From the NCBI GenBank assembly GCA_965215505.1, contig OZ244065.1, positions 4,512,001 to 4,576,000 of the forward strand: a stretch of DNA of 64,000 bases, read 5' to 3'. The notes beneath the pieces were generated by a model, which worked only from the letters and a program-made list of their open reading frames with translations, did no database searches and was not told the origin of the DNA. The stretch comes from Capsulimonadaceae bacterium (lineage in GTDB: Bacteria > Armatimonadota > Armatimonadia > Armatimonadales > Capsulimonadaceae). Position 1 is the first letter of the stretch; each line of letters opens with the position of its first letter. Made by a program: the position numbers and the translations under genes. This document shows positions 39,577 to 45,232 of the stretch, in pieces.

Positions 39577-40185
39577 TCAGGGGGTGGCAGTTCGCGGCAG
39601 AATGCCCCGGCGGCGGGCAAACCCTTGCAGCAGGTCGTGGAGCTTCATCCGCCCCCGCGCCAGGCGCGAGCGGACCGTGCCGATGGGGACGTTTAAAGCC
39701 AGGGCCGCCTCGGCGTATTCCAGGCCCTCCACGTCCACCAGCAGTACGCACAGCCGCAGGACCTCGGGCAGCATCGCCAGAGCTTTTTCCAGCTCCTCGT
39801 CCAGAGTCCCCGCCAGCAGGGCGACGCCGGGGACGTCTGAGGGGGCGGCGTGAGTCTGGGCCGGGCCGGCTTCACCCAACGAGGTCAGCGTGTCCAGGTC
39901 CGGCCCGGACTCGAACTTGCGCCGCCGGTGGTACTCGTTGATGAAGAGGTTGGTCAGGATACGCAGCAGCCAGGGTCTGGCGTCCGTGCCCTCGCGGAAG
40001 CGGCCTTCCAGGTAGGCGACATAGGCGCGCACCAGGGCATCCTGCACCAGATCCTGTGCCCAGTCGTGGTCGCCCCGGCACAGGCGCAGGGCCGCGCCCA
40101 TCAGGGCCGCCTCATGCCGCCGCGCCAGATCCGCGAAGGCGGCCCGGCGCGTCCGCGCTTCTTTTCCCGGCGGTTCTTGTGTCAT
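39577..40185 (-). CDS. ECF sigma-70 factor
   Basis: AQDLVQD, WLLRILTN, EGLEY.E.A..L.VPIGTVRSRL.RGR. Confidence 0.95.
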   Translation of the reverse strand: MTQEPPGKEARTRRAAFADLARRHEAALMGAALRLCRGDHDWAQDLVQDALVRAYVAYLEGRFREGTDARPWLLRILTNLFINEYHRRRKFESGPDLDTLTSLGEAGPAQTHAAPSDVPGVALLAGTLDEELEKALAMLPEVLRLCVLLVDVEGLEYAEAALALNVPIGTVRSRLARGRMKLHDLLQGFARRRGILPRTATP

Positions 40186-40195
40186 GTCCCCCTTC

Positions 40196-40221
40196 TACAA
40201 AGCGGTACTCCGGAAAGTTCC
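40196..40221 (-). promoter_or_regulatory. Possible autoregulatory ECF promoter
   Basis: GGAACT-N16-TGTA just upstream of the sigma gene. Confidence 0.4.
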
Positions 40222-40366
40222 ATAAAAAATCAAGGCAGGGGACTGTCGCCTTTAGGCGTCTGGGGAATGCCTTCCTGTCTGCCGAAGGCGTATCCCCGCC
40301 CTGCGACTTCCTTTCAGTTTTCGTTGAGTGTTTGACATTTGTGTAACGCGTCCCATATATGGGGCT

Positions 40367-40867
40367 ATGCCGCAAGAGAGCTACAGGAAGACAGCGGGAG
40401 GCGTTTTCAACCTCGGCTACCACTTTGTCTGGTGCGTCAAGTACCGAAAGCCTTTGCTGGTCGGCGACGTGGAGACTCGGCTCAAAGGACTGCTTCACGA
40501 ACGCGCCGCCGTGCTGGACTTGACGGTCGCACAGTTGGAGGTCATGCCCGGCTACGTTCACCTGTCTGTCAGCGCACCGCCTACCGATGCGCCCCAGCAC
40601 TACGCGAACCAGTTCAAGGGTCACACGTCCCGCGTTCTGCGGCAGGAACTCCCGCACCTGAAAAGCCGTCTGCCTGCGCTCTGGAGCAGAAGTTACTATT
40701 GCGGTTCGGCGGGCGATGTCCCGGCAGCGGTCGTTCAGCGGTACATTGAAGCGCAGAACACGCGCGACGCGGTTCTTCCGAGAGGCAGGGGGCAGTTGAA
40801 CAAGGCTTTCCGTTATCTCCTGTACCCGAACCGCTGTACCCGAACCGCGAACAGTCCGAGGCCATGA
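40367..40867 (+). CDS. tnpA: Y1 HUH transposase TnpA, probably inactive
   Basis: YHFVWCVKYR, FKGHTSR, LWSRSYY, YIEAQ; HUH reads YVH; no stop before the tnpB start. Confidence 0.85.
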   Translation: MPQESYRKTAGGVFNLGYHFVWCVKYRKPLLVGDVETRLKGLLHERAAVLDLTVAQLEVMPGYVHLSVSAPPTDAPQHYANQFKGHTSRVLRQELPHLKSRLPALWSRSYYCGSAGDVPAAVVQRYIEAQNTRDAVLPRGRGQLNKAFRYLLYPNRCTRTANSPRP

Positions 40868-42362
40868 CAATCCTCCTGAACACGCATCGGCATCTCTACA
40901 ACTCGGCTCTGGCAGAACGCAAGTCGGCCTACGAGGCGGAGAAACGTACCGTGGGTTATCAGGACCAGTCGGCGCACCTGAAAACCACCCGCAAGGAGAA
41001 CCCGTACCTGGCTCTGGCAAACTTCTCGTCCTGCCAGCGCACATTGAAGCGGCTTGACCGAGCATTCGCCGCCTTCTTCCGCCGCATCAGAGATCAGTCC
41101 AAGAACGGTGACAGAAAGATTGAGAGAACGCCTGGCTACCCGCGCTTTTGTGGCTATGGCCGCTTTGACAGCGTGGAGTTCACGCAGGGCGACGGGGCCA
41201 GACTGACTGCCGATGGCCGCGCCTACTTCCAGAGCGTCGGCAACGTCAAGGTCAAGATGCACCGCCCCGTGGAGGGCAAAATCAAGACCGTCACGTTCTG
41301 CCGACAGGCAGGCCGCTGGTACGCCGTGTTCGTGTGCGACGTTGCCGACACTGACGCCGAACAGTCCGAGAACCCTGCCGTGGGGATTGACCTCGGCTTG
41401 AAGTCCTTCTTCGTGACCAGTGACGGCGCGGAAGTGAAGCCGCCGAAGTTCTACCGCAAGGCGCAAAAGAAACTTCGCCGCGTCCAGCGGACCGTGTCCC
41501 GCAAAAGGAAGGGCGGCACGAACCGCCGCAAGGCCGTTCAGCACTTGGCGCGTGTTCATCAGCACGTTGCCTGCCAGCGCAAGGACTGGCAGCACAAAAC
41601 GGCCCTGTCGCTGGTTCAGCGGTACGGGTTGGTCGCCCACGAAGACCTGAACGCGAAAGGCATTGCCCGCTCTAAACTTCCTGGGCTTGCCAAATCCACG
41701 CACGACCCAGGGTGGTCGCAGCTTCTCTCCGTTCTGAGGCAGAAGGCTGAAAGCGACGCTGTCCTCGTGGTCGGAGTGAACCCGCTCAAACATGGGAGTC
41801 GCTTCTTGTCGGCAAGGAGTTGTTGCATAAACTCGATCTCGCTTTCAAGGTCTTCAATGCTCATGTCTTTATATCGCCTGCCGTTGCCGTTGTTCCCGCG
41901 CCACAACTCTAAGTTTTCTAAACAGTTGTCGGTTTTCTCTCCGTTCTTGTGGTGTACGGTTTCCGTTGGCTGTAAATATCTGCCTAAGTGCGCCTCCATC
42001 ACAAGGCGGTGTTGAAACACATAGCCGTTTCTGGCATTAGGATGTTCGGGATTACGGACTTGAACGTACCCCCGTCTGTTGGTACGCTTGCCGCCTTTCC
42101 AGTTGAGATTACTTTCGCCACGGGGTTGAGGCTTGGAAATCTTGAATGAACAAGGCTGGCAAGTTCCCGATAGGCTGCCTGCTGTTATGCTAGACCTAAC
42201 CGTTGCCACTGACACTCGTTCCACTTTCTTGCAGGCAACACAGGTGCGTTCAGTGGCTTTCAGGCTGACCGCGACTTCAACGCGGCCAAGAACATACTTT
42301 GCCGTGGTACGGCTTTGTGCAGGGCGGGGACACCGCCTTTGGGAGCCAACGTAGGCCAGTAG
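40796..42362 (+). pseudogene. tnpB: TnpB RNA-guided nuclease, frameshifted and interrupted
   Basis: KAFRY.LYPN start, 14-bp duplication at 40821-40848, RuvC-I GIDLGL, RuvC-II HEDL, break after VNP (41784), resumes GFQADRDFNAAKNIL at 42255. Confidence 0.92.
41785..42254 (-). CDS. Zinc-finger plus HNH endonuclease reading frame, antisense inside tnpB, with no clear start or stop of its own
   Basis: TCVAC...CQPC, NWKGG, GYV..HRLVME.HLGR.L, VHHKNGEKTDNCLENL; AT-richer than the flanks. Confidence 0.85.
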
Positions 42363-42420
42363 GCTGCCAGTAGGCTATGCGTTTCCCAAGAAGCCGGCCC
42401 CTCTAGGGGTAGGAGTCGTC
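42320..42420 (+). ncRNA. Putative omegaRNA/reRNA scaffold at the IS right end; 5' end uncertain
   Basis: Overlaps the tnpB 3' end and right end; GGAGCCAACGTAGG...GCGTTTCCCAAGAAGCC then hairpin. Confidence 0.5.
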
Positions 42421-42433
42421 CGCAGACCCTTCA

Positions 42434-45139
42434 TCACGCAGACCCTTCATCTTGTGCCAGCGCGTAATCCACCGTCTGCTCCCAGTCCATTCCCTGCCCC
42501 GTGGCCCAGGCGCTGCGGAAGGCTTCCGTGCCCAGTGCCTCGCGCACGGAGGCGACGCGGCCGGCGAGTTCCTCCTGCTCCGCGGAAGTCGGAGGGTTCC
42601 CTATGGTCTCGCGCAGGCAGGTAGCGGCCCCTAGAAGCCGGGCGGCCCGCGATGACCTCCCCTGCGCGTGTGCCACCCCCGCCAGGCCCTCCAGGCTGTC
42701 GGCGGTGTCCAGCCTGCCGCCCAGGCGTCGCAGGATCGTCAGGCACTCCTCAAGCAAGGCCCGTGCCGCCGCCAGGTTGCCCTGCCGGAAGGCCACATTC
42801 CCGAGGTTGCTGAGCGCGGCGGCAATCCCATTTTCGTTCCCGAGGCGCCGCGCGATCGCCAGACTCTCCTCGTGCAAGGCCCGCGCGAGGGCGGGGTCGC
42901 CCTGCCGTTCGGCCACGACCCCCAGGATGTTGAGTGAGACGGTGATGCCGGTCTGGTCTTTCTGCGCCCGCAGGACCGCCAGGCACTCTTCAAGCAAGGC
43001 CCGCGCCTGCGTGTGGTCGCCCAGCCGGAAGGCCACAAGCCCCAGCCCGAGCAGCGAGTAGGCGACGCCGTTCCGGTTCCCGACTTCCCGCGCGATCGTC
43101 AGGCTCTCCTCGAACAGGACACGCGCCGCACCGCTGTCGCCCTGCTCGGAGGCCAGGATGCCCGCCCCGTAGAGCGCCCTCGCCCGCACCGGTGCCGCGC
43201 CCGCCGCCCCGTTCAGCCCCGCCGCCTTCGCGAGTGCCCGGTCCAGCCACTGACGCCCCTCGGAATGATTGCCGCGCACCGACCAGAGCCACCAGAGCGC
43301 TGCCGCAAGCCGCAGGCCCTCCGCCGCACCCGCCACCGACCGCTCCGCCGGACGCATGTACCAGAAGAGGCTCGACCGTAGGTTGTCGTGTTCCGCCTCC
43401 AGCCGCCTCAGCCACGCCGCCTCCTCCGGCCCCCGCGCCTCCTTCTCCGCCTCTTCCGCCAGCGCCAGGAACCAGGCCGCGTGGCGGCCGCGCACGGTTT
43501 CCGCCTCGCCGCTCTCTTCCAGCCGGTCGCGGGCGTACTGGCGCATGGTCTCCAGCAGGCGGTAGCGGGCCGTGCCGCCCGCCTGTTCCTCGTAGACGAC
43601 CAGACTCTTGTCCACCTGCCCCATCAGGAGATCCAGCACCTCGGCGCTCTCCACATTCCCCCCGGAGCAGACGTGTTCCGCCGCCTCCATGGTCCAGCCA
43701 CCTGTGAACACCGACAGCCGCCGCAGCAGAATCTTCTCCCGATTCGTCAGCAGGTCATACGACCAGTCGATCAGTGCCCGCAACGTCTGCTGCCGGGGGA
43801 GGGCGGTGCGGGAGCCGCCCGTCAGCAGGCGGAACCGGTCCTCCAGACGCGCCATGACCTGCTCGACGGGCATGGCCCGGACGCGCGCCGCCGCCAGCTC
43901 GATCGCCAGGGGGATGCCGTCCAGTTGCCGGCAGATCTGCGCCATGGCGGCGGCGTTGGAGTCCGTCACCGCGAACGACGGCTGGACGGCCTGGGCGCGC
44001 TCGGCGAACAGGAGGACGGCCTCAAACCGTGACACGGCCCCAGCCGTCTGCGCCTGCTTCGGGTCGGGCAGCGACAGGCCGGGGATGCGGCAGGTCTGCT
44101 CACCCGCCACGTTCAGGGCCTCGCGCGACGAGGCCAGGAGGCGGACGTGGGGACAGGCGCGCAGCAGATCCGACGCCAGTGCGGCGCAGGCGGGCAGCAT
44201 GTGTTCGCAGTTGTCCAGGATCAGGAGGAGGTGACTCGTTTTCAGCGCGTCCGTCAGCGTGTCCGCGATCGGCCGGCCTCCCTGCTCCTTGATGCCCAGC
44301 ATCTGGGCGACGATCTGGGGCAGCAGGGAGGGGTCGGAGAGCGAGGCGAGTTCGGCGAGCCACACGCCGTCGTTCCCCTCGGCGAGCAGGTCGGCGGCCA
44401 CCCGAAGCGACAGGCGCGTCTTCCCCGCGCCGCCGGAGCCTACGAGCGTCACCAGGCGCGACTTCCGCATCAGCGCCTTGATCTCCGCGACCTCACCCCC
44501 CCTGCCGATGAAACTGGTCGTCTGCTGGGGCAGGTTGTTGGGCGGGGCCGGGCCGTCCAGTGAGCGCAGGGGCGCGAAGTCGGTGGGCAGGGCAGGGTGG
44601 AGGAGTTGGAAAACCCGCTGCGGGCCTTTCAGGTCTTTGAGGCGGCGCTCGCCCAGGTCCTGGAGCGCCGCGCCGGGCGGCAGGGAGTCCCGAACCAGCG
44701 CCTGCGTCGCCTCCGAGAGCAGTATCTGGCCGCCGTGCCCCGCCGCCACGAGGCGGGAGACGCGGTTGAGGGGCGGGCCGAAGTAGTCCCCGCCGCGCTC
44801 CTCGCAGGCCCCGGTGTGCAGGGCCATCCGCACCAGGAGCGGCGTCGGCAGGCCCCACGGCTCGGCGCACAGGGAGGTCTGGGCGGCTAGTGCCGCTTCC
44901 AGAGCAGCCCCGGCGACGGCGAAGGCCGCGTAGAAGGCATCGCCGACGGTCTTGAAGACATGGCCGCCGCTCCGCTCGACGGCGCGGCGGAGCAGGACGT
45001 CGTGCCGCGCCAGGGCCGGGCGCATGGCGTCGGGGTGCGCTTCCCAGAGGCCGGTACTCCCCTCGACGTCTGTGAACAGAAATGTGACCGTGTCTGTGGC
45101 CGTGTCTGTGACCGTATCTGTGGGCATGGCGGCGGGCAT
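42434..45139 (-). CDS. Class III adenylate cyclase - STAND ATPase - TPR protein
   Basis: FTDVEGST, KTVGD, DYFG..LNR..R; Walker A GSGGAGKT, LDNCEH, GIPLAIELAAAR; TPR repeats. Confidence 0.93.
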   Translation of the reverse strand: MPAAMPTDTVTDTATDTVTFLFTDVEGSTGLWEAHPDAMRPALARHDVLLRRAVERSGGHVFKTVGDAFYAAFAVAGAALEAALAAQTSLCAEPWGLPTPLLVRMALHTGACEERGGDYFGPPLNRVSRLVAAGHGGQILLSEATQALVRDSLPPGAALQDLGERRLKDLKGPQRVFQLLHPALPTDFAPLRSLDGPAPPNNLPQQTTSFIGRGGEVAEIKALMRKSRLVTLVGSGGAGKTRLSLRVAADLLAEGNDGVWLAELASLSDPSLLPQIVAQMLGIKEQGGRPIADTLTDALKTSHLLLILDNCEHMLPACAALASDLLRACPHVRLLASSREALNVAGEQTCRIPGLSLPDPKQAQTAGAVSRFEAVLLFAERAQAVQPSFAVTDSNAAAMAQICRQLDGIPLAIELAAARVRAMPVEQVMARLEDRFRLLTGGSRTALPRQQTLRALIDWSYDLLTNREKILLRRLSVFTGGWTMEAAEHVCSGGNVESAEVLDLLMGQVDKSLVVYEEQAGGTARYRLLETMRQYARDRLEESGEAETVRGRHAAWFLALAEEAEKEARGPEEAAWLRRLEAEHDNLRSSLFWYMRPAERSVAGAAEGLRLAAALWWLWSVRGNHSEGRQWLDRALAKAAGLNGAAGAAPVRARALYGAGILASEQGDSGAARVLFEESLTIAREVGNRNGVAYSLLGLGLVAFRLGDHTQARALLEECLAVLRAQKDQTGITVSLNILGVVAERQGDPALARALHEESLAIARRLGNENGIAAALSNLGNVAFRQGNLAAARALLEECLTILRRLGGRLDTADSLEGLAGVAHAQGRSSRAARLLGAATCLRETIGNPPTSAEQEELAGRVASVREALGTEAFRSAWATGQGMDWEQTVDYALAQDEGSA

Positions 45140-45232
45140 GGGAGACCTCGTTTCATGCCGGGCTGCCGGGGACAAGATTCCCAGCGGCCCGGAGACCAGC
45201 AGGAACAAACCGCCGGGCCTGGGGGCGGGGGG

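Follow-up and report, generated by a model that had tools for sequence, protein, structure and literature searches.

Could a TnpB nuclease have exchanged its zinc finger for an HNH nuclease domain, or has a decayed tnpB gene taken up a piece of foreign DNA? The question is raised by a locus in a 64,000-nt window of the genome of a Capsulimonadaceae bacterium (contig OZ244065.1; the window is the whole stretch that we analysed, and coordinates are counted from its first letter). A preliminary description of the window had reported that an antisense ZnF-HNH frame stands in place of the TnpB finger between RuvC-II and RuvC-III, and had proposed that the arrangement could be what an inversion left of a dual RuvC+HNH TnpB, with chance capture of a phage-type HNH gene fragment as the simpler alternative. 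The replacement was confirmed by analysis of the domains and by comparison with relatives. As to its origin, we give a probability of roughly 0.85 to the insert being a fragment of a foreign, phage-type HNH gene captured in a decayed tnpB, that is, to ordinary pseudogene wreckage.

The IS605-type element and its tnpB

The tnpB is part of an IS605-type element (~40223-42421), the ends of which were set at the limits of its conservation with relatives (alignments A3 and A2). Very probably, this is a decayed single-copy element of the IS200/IS605 family, composed of a Y1 tnpA and an ISDra2-type tnpB pseudogene with two independent lesions. It is flanked by an ECF-sigma-like gene on one side and a 924-codon gene on the other, both on the minus strand. 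As in IS200/IS605 elements, both ends are conserved with relatives. The left end (40223..40366, plus strand) matches the left end of the element in relative L005 (A3), and the right end (42363..42421, plus strand) contains a short palindrome, CCCCT-CT-AGGGG; the invariant columns of A2 run to ~42420 and are followed by divergence. By analogy, the 3′ part of the guide (omega) RNA would come from the right end. An Rfam scan of 39800-43000 matched no family and returned only two sub-threshold chance hits.

The tnpA gene (40367..40795, plus strand) encodes a Y1 (IS200-like) transposase (PF01797, E 1e-32). Its frame meets no stop before tnpB begins and continues across the opening tnpB codons (ORF 40328-40867), ending at 40867, only past the 14-nt duplication described below; in L005 the tnpA stop directly adjoins the tnpB ATG. 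When 40236-40300, within the left end, was searched against the genome's own DNA, three places were found including itself, the other two with 78-83% identity, and one of these adjoins the only other, distant tnpB (G000:C1:5981283-5981340).

The 5′ part of tnpB (40796..41784, plus strand) starts with TTG, comprises HTH/WED, REC, RuvC-I and RuvC-II, and ends with VNP; it is 61-69% identical to intact TnpBs of relatives. The opening from the TTG at 40796, MNKAFRYLLYPN, is the same as in relatives. The N-terminal HTH/WED domain (PF12323, 32.4 bits, cut-off 21) and the OrfB_IS605 RuvC core (PF01385, 84.5 bits, cut-off 30.5) are both present. Two lesions interrupt the reading frame, namely a frameshift at a 14-nt duplication and a 467-nt insert across which the frame changes. 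The first of these lesions, which the preliminary description had overlooked, is a perfect tandem duplication on the plus strand (40820-40833 = 40834-40847) that frameshifts tnpB after the 12th codon. With a single copy of the 14-nt unit the reading would continue as in relatives (MNKAFRYLLYPNREQSEAMT...), and past the duplication the shifted frame keeps good tnpB homology up to 41784.

At 41784 the frame, reading ...AVLVVGVNP, breaks off, and tnpB resumes in the third frame from 42255 as GFQADRDFNAAKNIL..., with a stop at 42360-42362; translation thus bore out the break after VNP and the point of resumption that had been given earlier. The 3′ remnant (42252..42362, plus strand) consists of the last finger Cys codon, GFQADRDFNAAKNIL (RuvC-III), the C-terminal tail and the stop. 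The TNB finger (PF07282) is absent: only profile positions 47-60 of 60 are matched, with 17.3 bits versus a cut-off of 26.3 (E 0.0055), and ~29-30 residues (~87-90 nt) with CxxC...CxxC, which relatives have between VNP/VAP and GF, are missing. The RuvC acidic motifs are kept and align with those of relatives, namely D in GIDLG, E in AHEDLN and D in ADRDFNAA. The three predicted RuvC catalytic residues, D, E and D, are accordingly retained in this alignment, as the preliminary description had stated.

The closest TnpBs are found in different genera within the same order; those of L005, L006 and L007 (69, 66 and 61% identity; 384, 396 and 389 aa) are intact and each has a normal finger, so the related copies that had been proposed as a check do carry the usual domain. 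The L005 protein matches the solved ISDra2 TnpB (8bf8/8exa/8h1j) with E 8.8e-62. In ISDra2 TnpB, the TNB zinc finger is formed by residues 327-359 (C331, C334, C351 and C354), is inserted in the RuvC fold, and accompanies the catalytic residues D191, E278 and D361 (PMC10097598). The window element resembles ISDra2-type elements in having a Y1 tnpA followed by tnpB, the HTH/WED domain, the OrfB_IS605 RuvC core and the D/E/D motifs. It differs from them in that the TNB finger is gone except for its last Cys codon, which encodes Ser in the present genome, and in that the ORF is broken by the 14-nt duplication and the 467-nt antisense insert. It is also the only close copy in its genome, where a tnpB search returned the locus itself and one distant tnpB, 28% identical. 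The tnpB is presumably a pseudogene, and neither it nor the HNH fragment is likely to function.

The antisense insert and the HNH family it comes from

The insert is 450-467 nt long and replaces the finger-coding stretch in antisense orientation. It carries a fragment of a foreign HNH_3 endonuclease gene (41799..42251, minus strand) with a CxxC...CxxC finger, an HNH core and a C-terminal helix. The minus-strand frame, already open at 42350, continues to a stop at 41616, encodes ERTCVAC...CQPC...HRLVME...HHKNGEKTDN... and matches HNH_3 (PF13392) with 33.3 bits versus a cut-off of 24.8. An open minus-strand frame with no start before the finger had been claimed, and indeed the first ATG, GTG or TTG in the HNH frame is the GTG at 42224, past the first CxxC. 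The fragment also has no stop codon of its own, its frame entering tnpB antisense until 41616, and it lacks the first ~35-50 residues of the family.

The junctions can be placed narrowly. Contigs of X4 and X9, from two other studies, have TGT (Cys) where the present genome has AGT (Ser) at 42252-42254. The Cys at 42252 in X4 and X9 corresponds to the last finger cysteine before GF in relatives, so tnpB-derived DNA starts at 42252 or earlier, and the insert is therefore at most 41785-42251, or 467 nt. HNH homology is certain only over 41799-42248. Between tnpB and the HNH fragment lies a 14-nt filler (41785..41798) that codon comparison with relatives and alignment A1 could assign to neither gene.

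In base composition the insert stands apart, as had been noted from its higher A+T: its G+C is 0.50, compared with 0.61 in tnpB and 0.68-0.72 in the flanks. At third codon positions the G+C is 0.56 in the HNH frame versus 0.78 in tnpB, and the HNH module thus has not shared the history of tnpB. Searches of the genome's own DNA and proteins found the insert and the HNH sequence only at the locus itself, and 40 relatives yielded no close homologue of the insert, with three weak partial matches only. The insert, of lower G+C, unique in the genome and without a close homologue in 40 relatives, is foreign and recent.

The family to which the fragment belongs is large and free-standing. Word-indexed searching gave 1370 of 1381 candidates (87-279 aa) that match the fragment at E <= 0.001, the best of them, of ~190-200 aa, with 50-57% identity over 94-98% of the query, and an exhaustive search returned 40,869 matches at the same threshold. 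In the alignment of the window fragment with 15 homologues (A1, 16 sequences), the finger cysteines C37, C40, C64 and C67 are invariant in 16/16 sequences; being invariant among free-standing homologues, they mark the finger as belonging to the HNH family itself. The window frame keeps each of the 36 columns that are invariant in A1, H114, H133, H134, N142 and N146 among them. The family is also one of phages: it matches phage family phrog_20891 (E 1.8e-30, profile positions 76-207 of 219), and relatives were found in 222 phage records and in 562 of 607 matched viral-contig stretches. A sequence search against solved structures gave no match at E <= 0.01.

Comparison with complete members of the family shows where the fragment was cut. 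In 14 of the 15 A1 homologues ~40 extra N-terminal residues (ELPxxL...YDFxSQ...) precede M-T-I-x-R-T-CxxC, and all 15 have their C-terminus a few residues past an LLAxKK-type helix, which is where the window homology ends (~41799). In the three best exhaustive matches, query residues 4-5 align to residues 39-53, and the query end falls 1-4 residues from the C-termini. At its 3′ side the fragment thus reaches as far as the gene naturally goes, and at its 5′ side it begins only a few codons ahead of the first CxxC. That the insert should match a free-standing HNH gene running past both junctions, an expectation set out in the preliminary description, holds at the right junction, beyond which homologues continue for 35-50 residues; at the left one it does not, the natural end of the gene being the junction. 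Overall, the window copy shares with free-standing HNH_3 proteins (PF13392; phrog_20891) the CxxC...CxxC finger, the HNH core and the C-terminal helix, and differs in lying antisense inside another gene with no start, no stop and none of the first 35-50 residues. The family match, the truncation and the composition support the simpler alternative of the preliminary description, a captured fragment of a phage-type HNH gene.

A 316-aa close-family protein (L104:495-1445) has the "EIPxxxxxxYDFxSQ...CxxC...CxxC" module twice in tandem, followed by one HNH core. The N-terminal extension that is absent from the window copy behaves in this protein as a repeatable unit, and is probably DNA-binding.

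The free-standing, phage-borne character of the family would also fit a mobile HNH homing gene that cut the finger site of tnpB and was copied into it, losing its 5′ part during the event or later. Members occur in replication modules, as homing-type HNH genes do (in L102, the homologue lies between a DnaB-like helicase and a Toprim primase), and the junction coincides with a natural gene 3′ end. However, none of 240 HNH loci has the HNH gene inside a tnpB, the genome has a single copy, and the window HNH is antisense and disrupts its host gene. Moreover, with no start codon and ~40 codons missing, it is not autonomous in its present form. Homing genes are usually borne by introns or inteins or lie between genes, and are not antisense disruptions of a host gene. 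We consider an invasion of this kind unlikely.

Strain comparison and the search for sense fusions

The arrangement is not an artefact of one assembly. A 3903-nt contig of X1 spans 40171-43000 with zero differences; a 5526-nt contig of X4, from another study, spans all 3 kb and differs by 13 substitutions and one 16-nt insertion; and contigs of X9 and X10 cross the junctions. The same arrangement in the same orientation is thus found in four runs from four studies (Logan contigs, which are blind to rare inversions, starts and strands). Misassembly, which had been named as a possible explanation, is ruled out, because contigs of four studies share the junctions. The 14-nt duplication is present in X4, X9 and X10 too, since no gap was reported there. 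Both the HNH insertion and the 14-nt duplication predate the divergence of the compared strains.

In the HNH-homologous part the strains differ in two codons, and each difference changes the amino acid in the HNH frame (A->V and L->R), the latter at a leucine kept in 16/16 rows of A1. In numbers far too small for a test, these changes point towards drift. They bear on whether the minus-strand frame could be an active HNH nuclease taken over by the host or the element, encoded by the 202-codon ORF from the GTG at 42224 to the stop at 41616 or by a longer form with a non-canonical start. The open frame, the retention of all invariant family residues and the persistence of the arrangement in several strains would agree with such a gene. 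Against it, a product started at the GTG at 42224, past the first CxxC, would have only part of the finger; the 61 codons at the end are tnpB antisense with no family homology; no sigma-70-like promoter site was found in 41500-42600 on either strand; and both strain differences are non-synonymous, one of them at the leucine conserved throughout A1. A functional antisense gene is, in our judgement, very unlikely.

Some further features of these contigs concern the element and its surroundings. An X4 contig of depth 38.7 matches 40246-40293 in the IS left end, which suggests that related organisms have an IS-end or MITE-like repeat in multiple copies. In X9, a low-depth contig joins 40880 to 41458, omitting 577 nt of tnpB, and a 256-nt contig matches 40264-40518 with 34 differences; these two contigs imply divergent or deleted copies of the IS family in the X9 sample. 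Immediately beyond the right end of the IS there are two tandem copies (42421-42452) of a 16-nt unit (CGCAGACCCTTCATCA-like), which overlap the 3′ end of the 924-codon minus-strand gene; X4 and X9 contigs have one extra copy, showing that the copy number differs among strains. The 924-codon ORF itself (42434-45208, minus strand) looks, from its translation, like a multidomain signalling protein with a cyclase-like N-terminus, an NTPase and TPR-like repeats, and its internal repeats at 42729-42886 draw many unrelated contigs in read mapping.

The reading that first drew attention to the locus supposes an ancestral TnpB with a sense ZnF-HNH in place of the TNB finger, comparable with IscB and Cas9, that was later inverted. 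It has in its favour that the insert sits exactly between RuvC-II (AHEDLN) and RuvC-III (ADRD), that this interval is the site of the TNB finger in TnpB (PMC10097598) and of HNH in IscB (PMC4810608), and that the module is nearly complete with an open frame. Frame arithmetic, however, speaks against it. Whether 41785-42251, 41785-42254 or 41785-42263 is inverted (467, 470 or 479 nt), the 3′ part stays out of frame: every segment that includes the filler has a length that leaves 2 when divided by three, so inversion fails to restore RuvC-III. The earlier remark that the inverted reading comes within one base of frame would apply to every length not divisible by three, and is therefore uninformative. 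The resemblance of the inverted join, VNP-(L)KATERTCVAC, to the usual VNPxxTSxxCxxC dissolved in a similar way. LKAT arises when the S/C-G-F-Q codons of tnpB itself, needed in the sense protein too, are read in antisense, and RTCxxC is a conserved motif of the HNH family, so the resemblance is a composite of two unrelated things. Further against an inversion, the finger, invariant in free-standing homologues, belongs to the HNH family, a third-position G+C of 56% versus 78% speaks against co-evolution inside tnpB, the closest TnpB relatives keep a normal finger, and flanking inverted repeats are at chance level only (short matches). As candidates for driving an inversion we rejected 22 short inverted-repeat pairs in 851 nt, which are of an abundant kind; inversion between the repeats of I3, the best pair close to a junction, would turn round tnpB codons too.

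A sense-orientation fusion of TnpB and HNH, the search for which had been proposed, was not found in the samples searched; these searches sample the databases through a word index, length windows and top-N lists. TnpB domains occurred in 0/66 longer HNH relatives (280-2000 aa), and an HNH domain in 0/120 longer TnpB relatives (435-2000 aa) among the matches listed, 117 of which have a normal PF07282 finger. A re-scan of five longer TnpBs, including two of the three with no PF07282, found HNH in none. Among the best 150 HNH representatives, the 14 longest have either tandem HNH domains or an HTH-HNH architecture, and TnpB domains are present in none of them (0/14). Within flanks of 2.5-4 kb, a TnpB was seen at 2 of 240 HNH loci (genome 0/80, metagenome 2/80, viral 0/80), and in both it is uninterrupted. 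In one (L116) it is intact and separately encoded with its own finger; in the other (L146) it is a contig-end fragment 1.3 kb from the HNH gene. The L116 metagenome contig (L116:1-2321) contains an HNH-type ORF (31-468), followed by an HNH_3 protein of 211 aa that has another HNH-like motif at its C-terminus and, 3′ of these two HNH genes on the same strand, the intact TnpB of 365 aa, with no tnpA. In its searchable portion, outside which ~1.7 million PMC articles lie, the literature makes no mention of a TnpB-HNH or Cas12-HNH fusion, and broader queries returned IscB/Cas9-type HNH only.

The likeness to IscB and Cas9 is thus one of position only, with HNH-coding DNA between the RuvC-II and RuvC-III motifs, where IscB has its HNH (PMC4810608). 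In contrast to those proteins, the window HNH is on the opposite strand, out of frame and of the HNH_3 subfamily with its own finger, the RuvC is TnpB-type rather than IscB-type, and no sense fusion is in evidence in the sampled databases. With the HNH family free-standing, the frame unrestored and no fusion found in these samples, an inverted relic is extremely unlikely, and the placement of the fragment at the IscB/Cas9 HNH position would be coincidence.

Probable capture of foreign DNA in a decayed tnpB

Capture of a phage HNH fragment would account for the locus by two lesions. In one, tnpB loses its frame after codon 12 through a 14-nt tandem duplication. In the other, a deletion-insertion would have removed ~87 nt of the TNB finger, sparing the last cysteine codon, and placed the 450-467-nt antisense HNH_3 fragment in the finger's stead. 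Phage DNA may have been captured when a break or an error of replication in the stretch encoding the finger was mended, whether by break repair, illegitimate recombination or template switching. Ku (PF02735) was not found in the genome, and classical end-joining is therefore not evident. A donor search over 257 loci (L005-L261) gave no near-identical DNA, the best match being 76% over 88 nt. In the comparison of the insert with the genome and relatives that had been proposed, the insert proved unique in the genome and had no close homologue in 40 relatives; a donor was not found.

Two further observations count against random capture. The HNH frame is fully open with the A1 invariants kept, which is expected if the capture is recent and would also fit selection. 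Besides, the captured piece is approximately a whole ZnF-HNH module and lies exactly at the finger site, a double coincidence if DNA was taken up at random. The module-like boundaries may be a coincidence too, or may hint that the DNA taken up stopped at the boundary of a gene or genome. Because the module is near-exact and ends at the natural 3′ end, we leave a few per cent for rival readings.

One of these is more speculative. A short-lived ancestor may have had a functional in-frame swap of finger for HNH, convergent with the IscB/Cas9 layout, that was later inverted and frameshifted; in a weaker variant, the HNH family homes into the tnpB finger site, one mobile element parasitising another. 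We regard this as highly improbable. If true, the Cas9-like layout of two nucleases would have arisen independently in a natural TnpB with an HNH insertion, and such a TnpB would be a compact candidate for genome editing.

On the favoured reading, capture of a phage HNH fragment, the locus is an ordinary decayed insertion sequence that holds captured foreign DNA. The locus also calls for caution in reading such arrangements, as CxxC fingers come with HNH_3 genes themselves, and conserved TnpB codons read in antisense can mimic a plausible join. What it provides is a dated example, common to several strains, of the capture of foreign DNA within an insertion sequence.
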